The notes below the pieces were generated by a model. The model had not been told where the DNA came from and did not search any database. It saw nothing but the letters and a program-made list of their open reading frames with translations. A stretch of DNA of 40,041 nucleotides from a virus. Its lineage: Duplodnaviria > Heunggongvirae > Uroviricota > Caudoviricetes. Of the stretch, positions 26,403 through 40,041 are shown in pieces; the stretch's first letter is position 1; each line of letters starts with the position of its first letter. The DNA is taken from IMG/VR virus record IMGVR_UViG_2778261296_000006; one strand, given 5' to 3'. The position numbers were made by a program, and so were the translations under genes.

Positions 26403-26612
26403 TCACCCCCACGCCTTGCTTTGCCATACCCGGCTCGGGCGAGGCGCGTTATCGCCTTCCGGCAATTGCGCGCTGACGGTCCAGGTGATGTTGTCGCGAT
26501 TCAGGCTGCGCTCTGTCTTTACACCGCGCGCCCGGTATTTCTCCACCAGCTCGTCGGCCTGTTCGGTGGTGCATTCGTGATGGTGGAACCAGGAAAATTT
26601 CATCGCCATCAC
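26403..26612 (-). CDS. hypothetical small protein (nin region)
   Basis: 69-aa ORF, tightly coupled to its neighbours. Confidence 0.3.
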   Translation of the reverse strand: MMAMKFSWFHHHECTTEQADELVEKYRARGVKTERSLNRDNITWTVSAQLPEGDNAPRPSRVWQSKAWG

Positions 26613-27208
26613 CCCGCAAAGCTCATCAGCTGGGCGGCGGCGTTTTCTGCCTCTTCACAACTGCGAAATGATCGGGAGAGTATCCATCGCCACAGAACAT
26701 CGAGCGCGGCTTTGTACAGCTGCTGGAACTCAGTTTCATCCATATTTGCGAATGAGATACTGCGGGGATGTTTGCGGAGGGTGCCGTCAGGCAGCTGAAT
26801 GGCGTCGTAATGGCCGGACTCAATAGTGACCCATGCACGATATGCATCGAATGACTTACAGGCGCAGATGCTACCAGTACGCTTATCGGCGATGCGGTCC
26901 AGATATTGCTCAGCAGCATCCAGGAGTGCTGCTTCACTTCCCGCGAATGAGGCAAGGAACTTGGCATAGCCGGTTACCAGCTTGCGTTCGTTGGAGGAGA
27001 TTGCCCCGCCGGTGGGTTCCCAGTATTCGAAACCGAGATTGAGTAACGCGAAGAAACGACGGTGAAAGGCCGGGTTGCGTACCTGCCGGAACTCAGCCAC
27101 CAGTACGGAGCCGAGTTTGATTTTTGATTGCAGTAAATCACTGGTCTCCGGCGTAGCGGGGATCAGGATTCCTGAGGAATGCTTGATGAGTTGTAGTTCG
27201 TGCGCCAT
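26609..27208 (-). CDS. hypothetical nin-region protein
   Basis: 199-aa ORF in the position occupied by NinB/YbcN-type genes in lambdoid phages. Family not verified. Confidence 0.4.
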   Translation of the reverse strand: MAHELQLIKHSSGILIPATPETSDLLQSKIKLGSVLVAEFRQVRNPAFHRRFFALLNLGFEYWEPTGGAISSNERKLVTGYAKFLASFAGSEAALLDAAEQYLDRIADKRTGSICACKSFDAYRAWVTIESGHYDAIQLPDGTLRKHPRSISFANMDETEFQQLYKAALDVLWRWILSRSFRSCEEAENAAAQLMSFAG

Positions 27209-27242: not shown

Positions 27243-27491
27243 TCAGACCGTTGATTTCATATTATCAGAAGGTGGGGTTACCCGGTAGCCGAGACGGTGA
27301 ATAAACTGCATAAAACCATTAGGAGTAAAGACCTCTTCATCATCCAGCAAAGGCCGCATAGAAACCATGCCATTGACGCGATAAATTAGATGCCTGCCCG
27401 ATGAAGGAAAGCTAAACACCACGCAGCCGTCAGACCTTCTTACAATGTCATACCAGTTGTCTTCTGACGTTTGCAAAGCTGAATCACTCAC
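27243..27491 (-). CDS. hypothetical protein downstream of dinI
   Basis: 82-codon ORF with a GTG start at 27491 preceded by GGGAG. No family recognised. Confidence 0.3.
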   Translation of the reverse strand: MSDSALQTSEDNWYDIVRRSDGCVVFSFPSSGRHLIYRVNGMVSMRPLLDDEEVFTPNGFMQFIHRLGYRVTPPSDNMKSTV

Positions 27492-27608: not shown

Positions 27609-27842
27609 CTAATAAAACCAGTCGTCAGCGCTTTCCCAGGTATCCTGGAGGATTGATTCAATTTTCTTTTTATCGTCCTTGTCACCACCAAAAACACTTA
27701 ACCCATCGGCCCCGGCACGGCGGATTGTGAGCCTGCAATTGTCATAGTGATCATTCAGGCGCTTAAGCAGTTCTTTCTCCAGTGCTGGTACTGCGCCTTT
27801 AGGAAGTTCTTTCATGCGATCAATGGTTAATTCAACTTTCAT
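27609..27842 (-). CDS. dinI: DinI-family DNA damage-inducible protein
   Basis: MKVELTIDRMKELPKGAVPALEKELLKRLNDHYDNCRLTIRRAGADGLSVFGGDKDDKKKIESILQDTWESADDWFY aligns end to end with E. coli DinI as I recall it (...ILQETWESADDWF). Confidence 0.8.
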   Translation of the reverse strand: MKVELTIDRMKELPKGAVPALEKELLKRLNDHYDNCRLTIRRAGADGLSVFGGDKDDKKKIESILQDTWESADDWFY

Positions 27843-27860: not shown

Positions 27861-27880
27861 TACTGTGTTTTTATACAGTA
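27861..27880. promoter_or_regulatory. LexA (SOS) box overlapping the dinI promoter
   Basis: TACTGTGTTTTTATACAGTA is a perfect CTGT-N8-ACAG palindrome with TACTGT/ACAGTA arms, about 20 nt upstream of the dinI start. A -10-like TATACT overlaps the box on the minus strand. Confidence 0.65.
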
Positions 27881-30496: not shown

Positions 30497-31036
30497 TCAT
30501 ATAGCCCCCAGCATAATCTGCACCATTTCCATCAACGGACCGGTTAACCCAGGGTCAACGCGATACATCTCCACGATCCCCTCGCTCAACTCTTTCAGCT
30601 TCTGATGACGTGGCGCATCCATTGCGACAGCAATCTTCGCTTCGCTGGTTTCCTTCTCCAGCCTTGCCAGACGAGCCATTACGTTGTCTTCTGGTAGCAG
30701 ACGATTGCGGTATTCAATCGGCAGGACAGCGAGGATTGCCGGCGTCAGCTGGCGGACGTTCTCGCGGTACCGTTCGCTGTTGAAATGGTTATCCAGGAAG
30801 CGGAACAGCTTCTGCCGGGCACGGCTGTGATCTGCCGGAAAGTCGATACCTTCGCCACCTATCCGGTGCCACTCTTCAACGATCAGGGCCGTTACAACGT
30901 CCTGCCCGGCTACTGCTGACCAGGCGCGAACAGCATCACGGAGGGCACCACAACTGACGCCCGGTTTTGGTTGAGCGCGATTTATCAGCGCTGCTGAAAT
31001 GAACCCGTTACTCTGTTGATACGTAAGTGATTGCAT
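30497..31036 (-). CDS. YdaT / CII-like regulatory protein (putative)
   Basis: 179-aa ORF immediately downstream of the cro-like gene and upstream of O, i.e. the cII/ydaT position of lambdoid and Rac-like prophages. Confidence 0.4.
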   Translation of the reverse strand: MQSLTYQQSNGFISAALINRAQPKPGVSCGALRDAVRAWSAVAGQDVVTALIVEEWHRIGGEGIDFPADHSRARQKLFRFLDNHFNSERYRENVRQLTPAILAVLPIEYRNRLLPEDNVMARLARLEKETSEAKIAVAMDAPRHQKLKELSEGIVEMYRVDPGLTGPLMEMVQIMLGAI

Positions 31037-31047
31037 AGTTACATTCC

Positions 31048-31266
31048 TTACTTTGGTAAACCGTCACTTGGGTTTGGATAGAGATCAGGGCGCAGCTCGT
31101 GTGGAGTTACGCCGGTAGCCGCGTAGATTTGAAGGACCCGATCAGCAGGCACCACGCCCTGGTACCGGTTTTTCCAGCGGCTGACCGACATCGGCTTGAT
31201 GCCCAGCATGGTTGCGAGATTTGTTGCAGTGCCAGCGGACTTAATGGCTTTCGTTAACCCGTTCAT
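31048..31266 (-). CDS. Cro / YdaS-like HTH regulator
   Basis: Start at ATG 31266 with GGAGAC RBS. 72 aa, MNGLTKAIKSAGTATNLATMLGIKPMSVSRWKNR... is an HTH-type sequence. Divergent from the repressor gene across the operator region. Confidence 0.6.
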   Translation of the reverse strand: MNGLTKAIKSAGTATNLATMLGIKPMSVSRWKNRYQGVVPADRVLQIYAATGVTPHELRPDLYPNPSDGLPK

Positions 31267-31294
31267 CGTTGTCTCCGATTTGAATACAATCAAA

Positions 31295-31336
31295 TTAAGC
31301 CTGAGACTTAATTTATTGTCAAGCCTGAGGCGAATT
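31295..31336. promoter_or_regulatory. OR-like operator/promoter region (divergent PR/PRM)
   Basis: 17-mer TTAAGCCTGAGACTTAA at 31295-31311 and related GTCAAGCCTGAGG at 31318-31330. A TTGACA hexamer on the minus strand (31322-31317) overlaps the sites and points toward the cro-like gene. Confidence 0.5.
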
Positions 31337-31370
31337 TTCAAGTTTAAGAAAAAGGCTTATTCTTCTAACC

Positions 31371-31757
31371 ATGAAAGAGAAAACCGTACTTAATCCGATA
31401 CTTGTCGAACGCCTTTCAGAGCTGAACGGGCGCGGTATGACCAAATCCGATATGGCCAGGGTTGCTGGGGTAACCCCGCAGTCTGTGAACGGCTGGTTTA
31501 AAAAAGGCGTGATCAGCAAGAAATCAGCTCTCGCTGTCGCTGACGCAGCTGGCGTGTCTGTGCCTTGGTTACTCGGTGAGGATGTCGGCGAGAAGGACGG
31601 ACTTAAGCCGGACGAACAGCGCCTGCTTGAGCTCTACCGCCAGCTGCCAGAAGAAGAGCAACAGAACATGCTCCGCATCTTTTCGATACGTCTTAAGGAA
31701 CTGGATGAGCTGTATGAGAAGTACATGAAGGGGCGGATTCGCTCGCAGGGGGACTGA
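31371..31757 (+). CDS. cI-like prophage repressor (HTH; no S24 peptidase domain)
   Basis: 128 aa. N-terminal HTH (MTKSDMARVAGVTPQSVNGWFKKGVISKKSALAVADAAGVSVPWLLGED), then a short helical C-terminal region. Too short to carry a LexA-like autocleavage domain. Divergent from the cro-like gene. Confidence 0.6.
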   Translation: MKEKTVLNPILVERLSELNGRGMTKSDMARVAGVTPQSVNGWFKKGVISKKSALAVADAAGVSVPWLLGEDVGEKDGLKPDEQRLLELYRQLPEEEQQNMLRIFSIRLKELDELYEKYMKGRIRSQGD

Positions 31758-31842
31758 ATCGCTTTAGGTTTGTCCTGAATTTTTAGTTCCCATGAGACAA
31801 TGATGTCTTTACTGGGGGGTGATTCCGCCATTTATGTTAGAT

Positions 31843-31870
31843 TGAAAAAAACTATCAATTTAATTAATAT
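31843..31870 (+). promoter_or_regulatory. sigma70-like promoter of the immunity-region cargo gene
   Basis: TTGAAA (31843-31848), 16-bp spacer, TAATAT (31865-31870), about 28 nt upstream of the cargo ATG. Confidence 0.45.
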
Positions 31871-31898
31871 TTATCACTACTACACGGGATGTTTTGCA

Positions 31899-33203
31899 AT
31901 GACAGCTGAGATTGTTGTAATAAATAATACTGGAATCGCCCTTGCTGCTGACTCTGCAGTCACCACAGAGCATAATAGATTAGTAAAAATAAATAATAGT
32001 GCGGAAAAACTATTCGAACTATCTAAACACCATCCCGTGGGGATCATGATTTATAATAATGCGACACTGGGTGGCGCACCGTGGGAACTTATAATTAAAT
32101 CCTATAGAAAACAATTGGGGAAAACTAGTTTCCCTACCATTAAAGAATATGTTAATGACTTTGTAAAATTCATCAATGGTAACTCAGACCTTATAACAAA
32201 TGAAATGAGAGAGGCTTGCGTTATAAACCTTGTTGTTGATAACCTCAAAGGTTTGATGAGATACATTAATGATAATAATGTAGTAAACTATTTAACAATG
32301 AACCCCGCCGTTGAACTCGACAATGTTATTTTTCAAAACATAGTTAAGCAAGCCTTTGATTTAGAGATAGAAATCTTAAGGAATAATCTCTTTTTCGAAG
32401 GGTTTGATACAGAAGAGTTTAATGATGCTTTAGCATATATACAAGATTTAATATCGCCATACATTTCATCAATTATTGTTCTTGATAACTGTGAAAATAT
32501 ACAGCAAGAGCTTATGGAAAAAGTCATATTATATTCCACTTGTTTAATTTTCAAAGTCCATGCTAGTCGTACATATTCAGGGATTGTTATAACAGGTTAT
32601 GGAGAGGAAGAATATTACCCTTCCATTTGCACTCTTCATATCTACGGCATTTTTAAAAACAAATTGATGATCCATAATATTAATGATAAATCCCATAATA
32701 AGGTAACCAATATGGGGTTTGTTATACCATTTGCTCAAGAAGATGAAGTAGTAACTTTCATTGATGGGTGCAACCCTAACATCATTAATTTTAACAGAAC
32801 TCTTACAGAGGAAGTTTTTGATCGGCTTAATCATTATGTTTCTAGCAATATTTTCCCTGCAATGAACAATGGAGTACTAGCCAATCACTTCTCCAGTGAA
32901 ATTGAGGAACTCAAAAACGTACTTTTACAAGATCACGATACTAAACTTGAAAGCTATATTGTTAATAACCATACAAATAAAATGATATCGATGTTGCAAT
33001 CACTTGGGAAGGCAGATCTTGCGTATATGGCCGAATCATTAGTGAACATCACTGCATTCAAAAGAAAAGTATCACATGATTATGAAACTGTCGGTGGGCC
33101 TGTTGATGTCGCTGTGATATCAAAAGTTGATGGATTTGTTTGGGTAAATCGTAAACACTACTTCCCTAAAGAGCTAAACTCTAACTACTTTAATCGTCAA
33201 TAA
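31899..33203 (+). CDS. AT-rich cargo protein of unknown function; candidate defence protein with Ntn-hydrolase-like N-terminus
   Basis: 434-aa ORF (MTAEIVVINNTGIALAADSAVTT...), strongly AT-rich versus flanking genes. Lies between the repressor gene and OL/PL with its own promoter and terminator. Start chosen at ATG 31899 because the upstream in-frame extension overlaps the promoter. Confidence 0.5.
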   Translation: MTAEIVVINNTGIALAADSAVTTEHNRLVKINNSAEKLFELSKHHPVGIMIYNNATLGGAPWELIIKSYRKQLGKTSFPTIKEYVNDFVKFINGNSDLITNEMREACVINLVVDNLKGLMRYINDNNVVNYLTMNPAVELDNVIFQNIVKQAFDLEIEILRNNLFFEGFDTEEFNDALAYIQDLISPYISSIIVLDNCENIQQELMEKVILYSTCLIFKVHASRTYSGIVITGYGEEEYYPSICTLHIYGIFKNKLMIHNINDKSHNKVTNMGFVIPFAQEDEVVTFIDGCNPNIINFNRTLTEEVFDRLNHYVSSNIFPAMNNGVLANHFSSEIEELKNVLLQDHDTKLESYIVNNHTNKMISMLQSLGKADLAYMAESLVNITAFKRKVSHDYETVGGPVDVAVISKVDGFVWVNRKHYFPKELNSNYFNRQ

Positions 33204-33220
33204 CACATAAGGAGATATTA

Positions 33221-33325
33221 ATGTCTATAAAGCAAGCTCTCAATAACGCTTATAAAATCATTGTAAATCAAAAATTTGGTAATAAAGAACAGCAGCACTC
33301 GCCGAAAGGATTTAACCAGCAGTAA
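33221..33325 (+). CDS. small basic protein (34 aa) co-transcribed with the cargo gene
   Basis: ATG at 33221 with AAGGAG 6 nt upstream. MSIKQALNNAYKIIVNQKFGNKEQQHSPKGFNQQ. Stop immediately followed by a terminator. Not in the supplied ORF track. Confidence 0.3.
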   Translation: MSIKQALNNAYKIIVNQKFGNKEQQHSPKGFNQQ

Positions 33326-33327
33326 TG

Positions 33328-33357
33328 AAAAAACCCGGCCACAGCGCCGGGTTTTTT
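33328..33357. terminator. strong rho-independent terminator (bidirectional form)
   Basis: AAAAAACCCGGC-CACAGC-GCCGGGTTTTTT: perfect 6-bp GC stem extended by A/T pairs, T6 tail. Confidence 0.65.
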
Positions 33358-33403
33358 ACACCCTCACCCACCATCTCAGCCGCCAACACCCAGCCACGAA
33401 GTC

Positions 33404-33437
33404 CCCGATCTCGACCTTAGCGTCGGGATTTTTTTTG
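33404..33437 (+). terminator. second terminator-like hairpin with T8 tract
   Basis: CCCGATCTCGAC-CTTAGC-GTCGGG followed by ATTTTTTTT. Confidence 0.4.
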
Positions 33438-33461
33438 CCTGCAATTCGGTGAACATCACGA

Positions 33462-33527
33462 TTAAGCCTGAAACTTACAATCACATTTCGCCTGGAGCTT
33501 GACATGATTTAAGTCTCAGGCTTAATA
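33462..33527 (+). promoter_or_regulatory. OL/PL-like operator-promoter
   Basis: Operator-like 17-mers TTAAGCCTGAAACTTAC (33462-33478) and TTAAGTCTCAGGCTTAA (33509-33525, reverse complement of the OR 17-mer) bracket and overlap TTGACA (33499-33504), 17-bp spacer, TAATAT (33522-33527). Confidence 0.5.
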
Positions 33528-33779
33528 TGCAATCACCAAGACGCACCACGAACCACCCAGGCATGGAGCCCACGAAGTAGCCGTCCGGGGCATACGAAGA
33601 CCGGAATGAGGTGGTGAGATTAACGCGCAGTAGGTTTGAAACGTTCCGCCAGCCTGGCGACAAGGGCAAAGCACAGAGTGAGCTTCGCGGTGGTGAATTG
33701 CAGAGTTAAAACGCTCAACCGTGAAGATCAGCGCCGCGGCACCACCAGCGAAGTTCACTCAGAAAAACTGGAGAACATC

Positions 33780-38851: not shown

Positions 38852-40041
38852 CTGAAGGGCTCTCCGATGATCTCTTCAAGATGGCTCTGCCAAACGCGGA
38901 GCCAGTGTTTCTGATCATCGATATAGTCATGAAGGTTGTAATGCGCCATAACCCCCACCATCTGATGCCCGAGCAGCTTTTCAATTACGTGCGGCGGGCA
39001 ACCTAACTCAGAGAGATTTGTGGCTATCGTCCGCCTCATATCATGAAGCGACCACTCTGCCATACCTGTTCCATTCCAAATAGAACGGGCGTAATTGGAT
39101 GCCACAGGTGAATGAACGGGCGAATCTTTGATCCCGCCATCAATTTTACGTTGTGAAGTCACCAGGTGATTGGTGTTTATTTTCTTGAGGTGATTTCTGA
39201 CCAGGTTAACGGCGGCGTCTGAGAGTCCCCTTCTAATATGTACCCGAGTTTTATAACTGCCCGCAGGCACGACCCACTCATTATCATCCAATCGAAACCA
39301 TGATCTCTCACTAAGTCGAATCTCAGCCGTACGGCATCCGGTAAGCATAATAAATTTCACCAGGAAAACGGACTCTATCGACATATGGCTTTTCAACCAC
39401 TGATAGATTTTGCGCAGATCGTCATCGTCCATCCTGCGAGTTCTCTTTTTAGGCTTTTGCCCGACATCAGATGGCAGTAATCCCTCGAGTGGGTTTGAGG
39501 CGATCACACTTCTGTTAACGCAGAACCTAAACGCCCGTTTGCACAGCGAAAGCATGTAATGAGCCATCACCCTGCTTTCTATAGAATCGAAGACGTTGAT
39601 CCAGTGCATTTTCGCTGTGTTATCGACTTTGACATTCTTCATCGGTTCGGCGATATGTTTCTCAAACACCTGGCGATAGTAATCGACTTTAACTAGCCCG
39701 TTAGCGATACAGTGCCTTTCAATCCAGTAATTGAACGCTTCGGCAACGGACATCGCTTCCTGTCGGGTCTGCTTATCCAGCTTCACCTGCTCTCGCGGAT
39801 CCAGTCCCTCAGTTAACCAGTTTCTGAATTGTTGGCGACGCTCTCTTGCCTGGGTGATACTCATTGCAGGATAATCACCAACATTGAGTTTTACCGCTTT
39901 ACCGGCCCAGCGATACCGATAGAAAAATGATATTTTTCCGGCCTGGCTGATTCTGGCGTTGAGCCCGTGCGAATCAGAAATAATCTCGATATCATCTCTT
40001 TTCTTGCCGAGCGCCTTCCTGAGCTTTGTGTCGGTGATCAT
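38848..40041 (-). CDS. int: tyrosine-type site-specific integrase (P4-like)
   Basis: 397 aa starting at the window edge (ATG 40041-40039). C-terminal catalytic region with R...HxxR...Y-type signature ([11 protein letters not shown] ... [18 protein letters not shown]). Confidence 0.85.

Follow-up and report, generated by a model that had tools for sequence, protein, structure and literature searches.

The available text of Lemire et al. (2011, PMC3121763) describes the repressors of the Gifsy prophages as small and non-cleaved, with antirepressors supplied by a LexA-controlled dinI-antirepressor-irsA operon. According to the same text, GfoR and GfhR are each targets of both antirepressors, GfoA and GfhA, which release the repressors from DNA, although the phages are heteroimmune; the two repressors recognise different operators, whose sequences do not appear in that portion of the report (PMC3121763); the legend of its Fig. 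S1 places a Gifsy-3 promoter inside the interval between the long and short gfhR start codons. In the literature accessible to us, no published operator sequences for the GfoR/GfhR (Gifsy-type) repressor family were found. In prophage CP-933P of Escherichia coli O157:H7, the footprints of PaaR2 and YdaS fall on OR, both proteins repress PL, and the paaR2 mRNA is leaderless (Jurenas et al. 2021, PMC8630535). In the Rac prophage, which encodes RacR, YdaS and YdaT, the racR-ydaS intergenic region contains three inverted repeats, WTAGGC-n3-GCCTAW, and the promoter mapped for racR is leaderless (PMC9638921). Here, we analyse a 40,041-base stretch of DNA (IMG/VR record IMGVR_UViG_2778261296_000006; hereafter the window), an E. 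coli lambdoid prophage adjoining kch and cls, with terminase, lysis, Q-like, O/P and recET modules. Repeated 17-bp motifs in the window bracket a unit made up of a gene for a 128-residue repressor and cargo, and their sequence, placement and conservation make it very probable that they are the operators of a lambda-style lysis/lysogeny switch.

We searched both strands of the whole window for the 17-mer, allowing up to 3 mismatches, with dinucleotide-preserving shuffles (n=100) as background. As the original prediction had reported, TTAAGCCTGAGACTTAA occurs exactly on the plus strand at 31295-31311 and on the minus strand at 33509-33525, and a related copy, TTAAGCCTGAAACTTAC, with 2 mismatches, lies at 33462-33478; beyond these copies, no match with up to 3 mismatches exists anywhere in the 40,041 bases. 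The shuffles give a mean of 0.04 matches, versus 5 observed counting both strands, and this number is attained in 0/100 of them. Only 3 positions distinguish the 17-mer from its reverse complement, and it is therefore a dyad, TTAAG-N7-CTTAA. Repeat finding revealed an additional dyad, TTAAGAAAAAGGCTTAT, at 31344-31360, and an 18-nt inverted pair (31317-31334 with 33487-33504) carrying TTGACA within both arms. The 13-mer GTCAAGCCTGAGG, listed earlier as a related copy at 31318-31330, is present and forms part of a weaker middle site at 31319-31335. Judged by sequence, there are three sites per side, six in all, with the consensus TTAAGyCT-n-AGrCTTAA; the sites listed in the original prediction are thus retained, while its count of four is corrected to six, O_R3 (31344-31360) and O_L2 (33486-33502) having been missed.

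A position weight matrix built from sites of the same operator class (class A, see below), taken from other loci only, was scored at 40,025 window positions. Its top four positions in the window are O_R1, O_L1, O_L3 and O_R3 (25.9 to 16.4 bits), and the best non-operator position (start 28339, 9.9 bits) has rank 5. The predicted sites and the promoter elements around them are as follows.

31295-31311: O_R1, TTAAGCCTGAGACTTAA, 25.9 bits, rank 1 of 40,025, between the -35 and -10 elements of PR
31319-31335: O_R2, TCAAGCCTGAGGCGAAT, 8.2 bits, rank 7 of 40,025, weak middle site over the PR -35 element
31344-31360: O_R3, TTAAGAAAAAGGCTTAT, 16.4 bits, rank 4, its last two bases opening a PRM -10-like hexamer
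33462-33478: O_L3, TTAAGCCTGAAACTTAC, 22.1 bits, rank 3
33486-33502: O_L2, TTTCGCCTGGAGCTTGA, 4.9 bits, rank 17 of 40,025, weak middle site over the PL -35 element
33509-33525: O_L1, TTAAGTCTCAGGCTTAA, 25.9 bits, rank 2, between the PL -35 and -10 elements and overlapping the -10
31317-31322, minus strand: PR -35 element TTGACA, facing the cro/ydaS-like gene
31359-31364, plus strand: putative PRM -10 element TATTCT, about 6-7 nt before the repressor ATG
33499-33528, plus strand: PL, with TTGACA (33499-33504), an 18-nt spacer and TAATAT (33523-33528), 10 of 12 consensus matches, facing kil, ydaE, recE and recT
33462-33528: OL and PL taken together

The centres of the sites are spaced by 24 bp (O_R1 to O_R2) and 25 bp (O_R2 to O_R3) in OR, and by 24 and 23 bp in OL. 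Read in promoter direction, O_R1 is identical to O_L1 and has the same offset from TTGACA. Both TTGACA hexamers named in the original prediction are present; the PL spacer, given there as 17 to TAATAT, is actually 18 nt, and becomes 17 only if the -10 element is taken as TTAATA. The second site cluster is located on the early-left promoter, 3' of the repressor gene.

To place the sites in a wider context, we compared related loci. The segment 31000-33650 has 99.9% identity to five complete genomes (e.g. NZ_CP062811), and at least 80% of it is found in 13 of 5,426 genomes. A megablast search of phage genomes gave no phage record containing the whole region, so protein-level searches were needed. 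The relative L002 (NZ_CP058714) has the same backbone as the window; to it were added four phages with homologous repressors (mEp237, SEN34, PHB10 and SW-37) and 22 genome loci from different Enterobacterales genera, and comparative counts were taken over 28 loci with this repressor family. In L002 the repeated dyad is a different one, TAAACC-N5-ATTTA, yet it occupies the same places in OR and, beyond a cargo unlike that of the window, lies on the same TTGACA promoter.

The generic pattern TAAR-N7-YTTA has a chance expectation of roughly one per 16 kb. In 28/28 loci, two matches 47-49 bp from each other start about 72-75 and 25-27 bp 5' of the repressor ATG, O_R3 itself starting at -25 to -27 from the ATG in every one. 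In 21/28 loci, a TTGAC promoter beyond the cargo slot carries a second exact pair, with a spacing of 46-47 bp, the slot before it ranging from 154 bp to 2.5 kb in length. Five further loci have one exact dyad and an imperfect partner at OL, while OL is not cleanly resolved in L010 and L023. At class-C loci the second OL site escapes the exact pattern because of its mismatches; the promoter-proximal site, like the TTGAC hexamer, is still found. The aligned loci share a common plan: site 1 lies between the TTGAC -35 element and a -10 element that starts in the last dyad bases, site 2 is degenerate and merges with the -35 element, and site 3 lies upstream. The TTGACA/TTGACY hexamer and the PL geometry are found in 26/28 loci. 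Among class-A OR regions (24 distinct sequences), the spacers diverge, whereas O_R1 is variable at two positions only, the central base (position 9) and position 12.

The inner bases of the dyad define four classes (A, TTAAGCC; B, ATAAACC; C, GTAAAGC; D, TAAACAT), which are listed here with the recognition helices of the regulators encoded at the same loci.

Class A: operator TTAAGCCTGAGACTTAA; repressor helix 3 TPQSVNGWFKKG; Cro-like protein KPMSVSRWK; window, SEN34, SW-37, L007, L008
Class B: operator ATAAACCACAGATTTA; repressor helix 3 TPQAVNGWFKKG; Cro-like protein TSMSVSHWK; L002, PHB10, L009-L013
Class C: operator GTAAAGCAnnnnTTTAC; repressor SKQAVxGWFRTG; Cro-like protein SKMAVSLWR; mEp237, L014, L015, L021, L024
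Class D: operator TAAACATnnTGTTTA; repressor SxQSVNNWFVRG; Cro-like protein SAMTVSHWR; L016-L020, L022, L023, L025-L028

The operator class tracks the recognition helices of both the repressor and the Cro-like protein, with 0 discordant loci, while repressor residues from about 66 to 128 are almost invariant across all four classes. The sequences and positions of the sites, their conservation and this covariation are direct observations.

Furthermore, the 17-mer is tied to the repressor type outside the window. An exact scan of 2.9 million viral contigs found it in 37 stretches, in 34 of which a class-A repressor (82-100% identity) is adjacent and the motif is placed either at -75/-76 or on the downstream promoter, at OL. 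The remaining three have their copy close to one end of the stored sequence or consist of a very short sequence. Copies are thus not scattered over many unrelated positions, either in the window or in the contigs. Together, the layout of the 28 loci, the helix covariation and the link between the 17-mer and the repressor type support the original assignment of the two clusters to OR and OL as operators.

Several observations weigh against the operator reading. The PR -10 element is poor (TTAATT or TAATTT around 31293-31299), and a consensus promoter scan of the window did not call PR. O_R2 (8.2 bits) and O_L2 (4.9 bits) are weak and possibly non-functional. The copy-number evidence is limited to the 40-kb window and the 2.9 million viral contigs. 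Finally, the covariation is equally complete for the repressor and the Cro-like protein, so it does not single out the binder. This last point also favours the best of the alternatives, in which the sites are real but are read by one regulator only, either the Cro/YdaS-like protein or the 128-residue repressor, with the other using different sequences. CP-933P, where two overlapping kinds of repeat are seen and the exact targets of PaaR2 and YdaS are left open (PMC8630535), lends it further credit. However, repeat finding detected no second repeated motif common to OR and OL, both regulators cover the same region in lambda and in the CP-933P footprints, and both proteins here carry class-specific recognition helices. 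We consider a single reader unlikely.

Another explanation is that PR and PL are paralogous promoters which share core and spacer by descent and are read by RNA polymerase alone. O_R1 and O_L1 do lie inside the promoter spacer and -10 element, and the -35 hexamers are identical. However, O_R3 and O_L3 carry the dyad outside the promoter cores, dyad symmetry is useless to RNA polymerase, and the class-to-class changes affect the inner bases but leave the -35 element as TTGAC, all of which makes descent alone very improbable. Least credible of all, and close to negligible, is a mobile repressor-cargo cassette with the inverted 26-nt repeats 31291-31316 and 33504-33529 as its terminal inverted repeats or recombination sites. 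In its favour, the two arms have opposite orientation, show 88% complementarity over 26 nt and flank a 2.2-kb unit that carries different cargo in different relatives. Against it, each side has three sites, all at fixed promoter positions, the unit holds repressor and cargo only, with no transposase or recombinase, one cargo can be found with several immunity classes and one class with several cargoes, and the repeats change with the helix-turn-helix class and are kept at loci with an empty slot (L016, L017, L021).

Consistent with a set of operators for a lambda-style switch, the genes around the sites follow the plan of the lambda immunity region: cro/ydaS and ydaT divergent from the repressor, OR, the repressor, cargo, terminators, OL/PL, and kil-recE-recT. 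The cargo lies inside the immunity region, as originally proposed. The features are as follows.

30497-31036, minus strand: YdaT-family protein (CII analogue), Pfam PF06254, 2.5e-23
31048-31266, minus strand: Cro analogue of the YdaS family, 72 residues, PF15943 1.4e-14, PDB 3bd1 'Cro protein' 9e-7, a RefSeq coding sequence
31267-31370: OR interval, 104 bp with three sites, separating the divergent repressor and cro/ydaS-like genes
31371-31757, plus strand: 128-residue repressor, HTH_3
31899-33203, plus strand: cargo gene, 434 residues, AT-rich
33221-33325, plus strand: small cargo open reading frame, 34 residues, with an AAGGAG ribosome-binding site
33328-33363, plus strand: intrinsic terminator at the end of the repressor-cargo unit (hairpin 33328-33357), -18.9 kcal/mol, z = -5.0
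33407-33438, plus strand: second terminator-like hairpin followed by a T run, weak (z = -1.3), kept in the heteroimmune relative L002
33780-33986, plus strand: kil (phrog_294), followed by ydaE, recE and recT on the same strand

By analogy with Gifsy-1/-3, CP-933P and lambda, we propose binding of the sites by the repressor or the Cro-like protein, cooperativity, a leaderless start and an antirepressor step. Specifically, repressor dimers on O_R1 and O_R2 would shut PR and with it the cro/ydaS-like gene, ydaT and the replication genes, while dimers on O_L1 and O_L2 would shut PL and with it kil, recE and recT. The Cro-like protein would read the same sites as the repressor. O_R3 overlaps the -10 element of the PRM-like promoter, from which transcription would start at or beside the repressor ATG to give a leaderless mRNA; because of this overlap, excess repressor or Cro-like protein at O_R3 would lower repressor expression. 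In the lysogen, the cargo would be switched on by read-through from PRM and/or by a promoter of its own, and the terminators would insulate it from PL. Upon DNA damage, LexA would leave its box at 27861-27880 and a GfoA-like antirepressor would be made, which would bind the conserved C-terminal half of the repressor and remove the repressor from its operators with no self-cleavage.

The leaderless start is suggested by the layout of OR and by the precedents above. In the window no Shine-Dalgarno sequence is present before the repressor ATG and the PRM -10-like hexamer, which O_R3 abuts, lies 7 nt before it, which is why we take the mRNA to be leaderless. A TAnnnT hexamer starting at the last two bases of O_R3 and ending 6-8 nt before the ATG is found in 28/28 loci (TACAAT for classes B and C; TAGAAT predominating in class D), and a Shine-Dalgarno sequence is absent before the repressor ATG throughout the aligned OR regions of the 28 loci.

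The 128-residue repressor matches only HTH_3 in Pfam, and no S24 peptidase domain was found in it; induction would therefore not proceed by RecA-stimulated self-cleavage. The earlier description of the protein as cI-like is upheld for its predicted role as immunity repressor and set aside for the cleavable lambda-CI type, the features being those of the Gifsy GfoR/GfhR type. In its structural model (predicted local distance difference test, pLDDT, 83), a five-helix helix-turn-helix domain (9-68), with the predicted recognition helix at residues 36-45, is followed by a flexible linker and two C-terminal helices. The modelled domain overlays the N-terminal domains of P22 c2, 434 repressor and SinR; in the PDB sequence search, 434 repressor appeared only at E about 0.1. 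The top hits of that search, to polyubiquitin, were rejected as a spurious repeated 23-residue match to the linker GEKDGLKPDEQRLLELYRQLPE (residues 72-94), including GLKPDEQRLL. Among the candidates scored, 916 repressor homologues have E <= 0.001, and those with names come from Escherichia, Klebsiella/Raoultella, Enterobacter, Salmonella, Citrobacter and related genera.

Relatedness to GfoR and GfhR was judged from the primer sequences in Table S1 of Lemire et al. (2011, PMC3121763). The repressor ends in EKYMKGRIRSQGD and GfoR in EKYMKGRIRTRED, and the gfoR 3' primer matches window positions 31716-31754 at 30/39 nt. Furthermore, the GfoR start MKEKTHQ is identical to the start of the class-D repressors, and the gfhR long-ORF (open reading frame) primer contains AAAGTAAAGCATCAT, including the class-C O_R1 arm as in mEp237. 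By these sequences the repressor is assigned to the Gifsy GfoR/GfhR family, an assignment weakened by its basis in short, primer-derived termini rather than full sequences. The same primers point to an induction operon on the minus strand.

27861-27880, minus strand: perfect LexA box, TACTGTATAAAAACACAGTA, just upstream of dinI; compare the Gifsy-1 box in primer pp752
27609-27842, minus strand: dinI homologue; the dinI 3' primer matches 27647-27609 at 36/39 nt
27243-27491, minus strand: candidate antirepressor, GfoA-like, 82 residues; the gfoA 5' primer matches 27491-27468 at 21/24 nt and the 3' primer 27299-27261 at 34/39 nt
26609-27208, minus strand: irsA-like DUF1367 gene; the irsA primer matches at 27208 at 30/33 nt

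On this evidence the window is predicted to encode one more immunity type of the GfoR/GfhR family, the third or fourth, and with it a complete Gifsy-type induction module. By analogy with Gifsy, the repressor is probably inactivated by the LexA-controlled antirepressor; we infer non-cleavage and release by an antirepressor from the absence of S24 and from the C-terminal half that is invariant across heteroimmune classes. A second perfect CTGT-N8-ACAG, CTGTGAAAATATACAG, at 32489-32504 within the AT-rich cargo gene, probably matches the LexA core by chance, 5/100 shuffles giving at least 2 matches.

A wider proposal joins these elements into a GfoR/GfhR allelic series with at least four specificities in one operator frame, a few-residue switch between classes A and B, a shared antirepressor, and repressor copies carried as cargo; we advance it tentatively, its chances falling somewhat short of even. 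The fixed frame may comprise TAAR-N7-YTTA, three plus three sites, identical promoter geometry and the leaderless PRM. The A/B switch may require as little as Ser38 to Ala, Ser26 to Ala and changes in the N-terminal arm, matched by a G to A change at half-site position 5 and neighbouring inner changes. With the C-terminal half of the repressor invariant, one LexA-controlled antirepressor could co-induce heteroimmune prophages from E. coli and Salmonella to Klebsiella and Enterobacter. As for repressor copies, mEp237 (L003, 4404-4796) and SEN34 (L004, 4412-4813) encode a second GfoR-family paralogue directly 3' of their own repressor. It has a class-D-type recognition helix, SQSVNNWFVRG, and a diverged C-terminal region, and it may be a captured foreign repressor that confers immunity against class-D phages and escapes the antirepressor.

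From the repressor stop codon to OL extends a slot of variable content. In related loci it holds none to four genes, nearly all on the repressor strand, with a G+C content of 0.33-0.44, and the three empty-slot loci noted above retain the operator repeats. In the window, cargo G+C content is 0.29-0.36 versus 0.50-0.56 on both flanks. Slot contents shuffle independently of immunity class: a pair of 157- and 310-residue proteins occurs with classes A and D, and a pair of 195 and 305 residues with classes B and C. Among 30 representative slot proteins, PADLOC defence candidates PDC-M63, PDC-S25, PDC-S42, PDC-M64, PDC-M66 and a ThsA-like SIR2 protein were found, as well as HipA-like kinases. A slot for variable accessory genes fits the placement of bstA 3' of cI, where it lies downstream of cI and presumably under the same promoter (PMC8585504).

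For the window cargo protein and the 34-residue open reading frame, PADLOC and Pfam gave nothing. The cargo family is phrog_5990, with >5,000 scored homologues, and its alignment shows an invariant Thr right after Met, Asp17 and Lys residues. This alignment favours a start at 31899 (434 residues), while RefSeq has 31800 (467 residues). The best PDB matches of the AlphaFold model (pLDDT 86.5) are 20S proteasome beta subunits and Anbu (E = 2.5e-4); as modelled, the protein looks like a proteasome-beta/Ntn-like (N-terminal nucleophile) protein whose Ntn-hydrolase core is split by long helical insertions. At L022, a small 47-residue open reading frame after the homologous cargo shares IIVNxKF with the 34-residue frame of the window, and since a small frame follows the cargo in both, the cargo may be a two-gene cassette.

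Further features lie beside the operators and PL. A decamer, TTACAATCAC or ATGCAATCAC, stands directly 3' of O_L3 (33475-33484) and O_L1 (33527-33536), in the same orientation and 52 bp apart, and TACAATCAAA at 31285-31294 precedes O_R1; these could be extended operator flanks. Sites of the YdaT/CII type, TTGATT-N6-AATCAA, were considered and rejected: the window has 5 weak matches, not above chance and none at the operators. The PL leader (33536-33779, plus strand) leaves about 245 nt untranslated before kil, and its start, CACCAAGACGCACCACGAACCACC, is common, whole or slightly changed, to many loci of all four immunity classes. The fold of the 246-nt leader is unremarkable (z = -1.7), and no Rfam family matched in the whole window, PL leader included. 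No N-like gene was found after PL.

For a repressor family that is widespread among the prophages of Enterobacteriaceae, these results provide concrete putative operators as well as a map of the promoters. The matching of four operator classes to their helices offers a system for studying the evolution of heteroimmunity and for predicting homoimmunity from sequence alone, and the slot between repressor and OL emerges as a hot spot for lysogen-expressed cargo and defence. The arrangement is an ordinary lambda-style one, and current understanding is not overturned.

P22 c2 binds operators of the form ATTTAAG-N4-CTTAAAT. The window sites share their half-site core, TTAAG/CTTAA, and the modelled helix-turn-helix domain overlays the c2 N-terminal domain at 1.6-1.9 Å; however, the arms are 7 bp apart in the window versus 4 bp in P22 and the recognition helices differ, so that this is a resemblance only. 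With Rac, the window shares three inverted-repeat operators, YdaS/YdaT partners, a recET neighbourhood and, as predicted for the window, a leaderless repressor promoter, whereas RacR reads WTAGGC-n3-GCCTAW and is larger, with two helix-turn-helix domains.

The likeness to CP-933P is closer. In both, the repressor gene is divergent from ydaS-ydaT (PF15943, PF06254), an OR of roughly 100 bp holds several dyads over PR/PRM, a second operator set (OL1-3 in CP-933P) lies on PL, and cargo lies between the repressor and OL; the leaderless repressor mRNA is demonstrated in CP-933P and only predicted in the window. In contrast, the CP-933P repeats follow the consensus GTTTAGTAA in four equally spaced palindromes, and the cargo there is the toxin-antitoxin pair paaA2-parE2. 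PaaR2 is an octamer, whereas GfoR is reported to be a dimer. The PDB sequence search, which made no direct comparison with PaaR2, gave no relative of the window repressor beyond the helix-turn-helix domain.

In its general architecture, the locus resembles lambda: 17-bp dyads, three per side and 23-25 bp apart from centre to centre, about 2.2 kb between OR and OL, sites 1 and 2 over the lytic promoters, O_R3 over PRM, and accessory genes (rexAB in lambda) between the repressor and OL. Unlike lambda, it has a repressor lacking S24, an all-helical YdaS-type Cro, no N after PL and an unrelated operator sequence. The regulators and the induction module are most like those of Gifsy-1 (ATCC14028) and Gifsy-3 of Salmonella, with which the window shares the repressor family, the small repressor lacking S24, the dinI-antirepressor-irsA operon with its LexA box, and a backbone with recE and recT, while it differs in its class-A operator specificity and in its host, E. 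coli.

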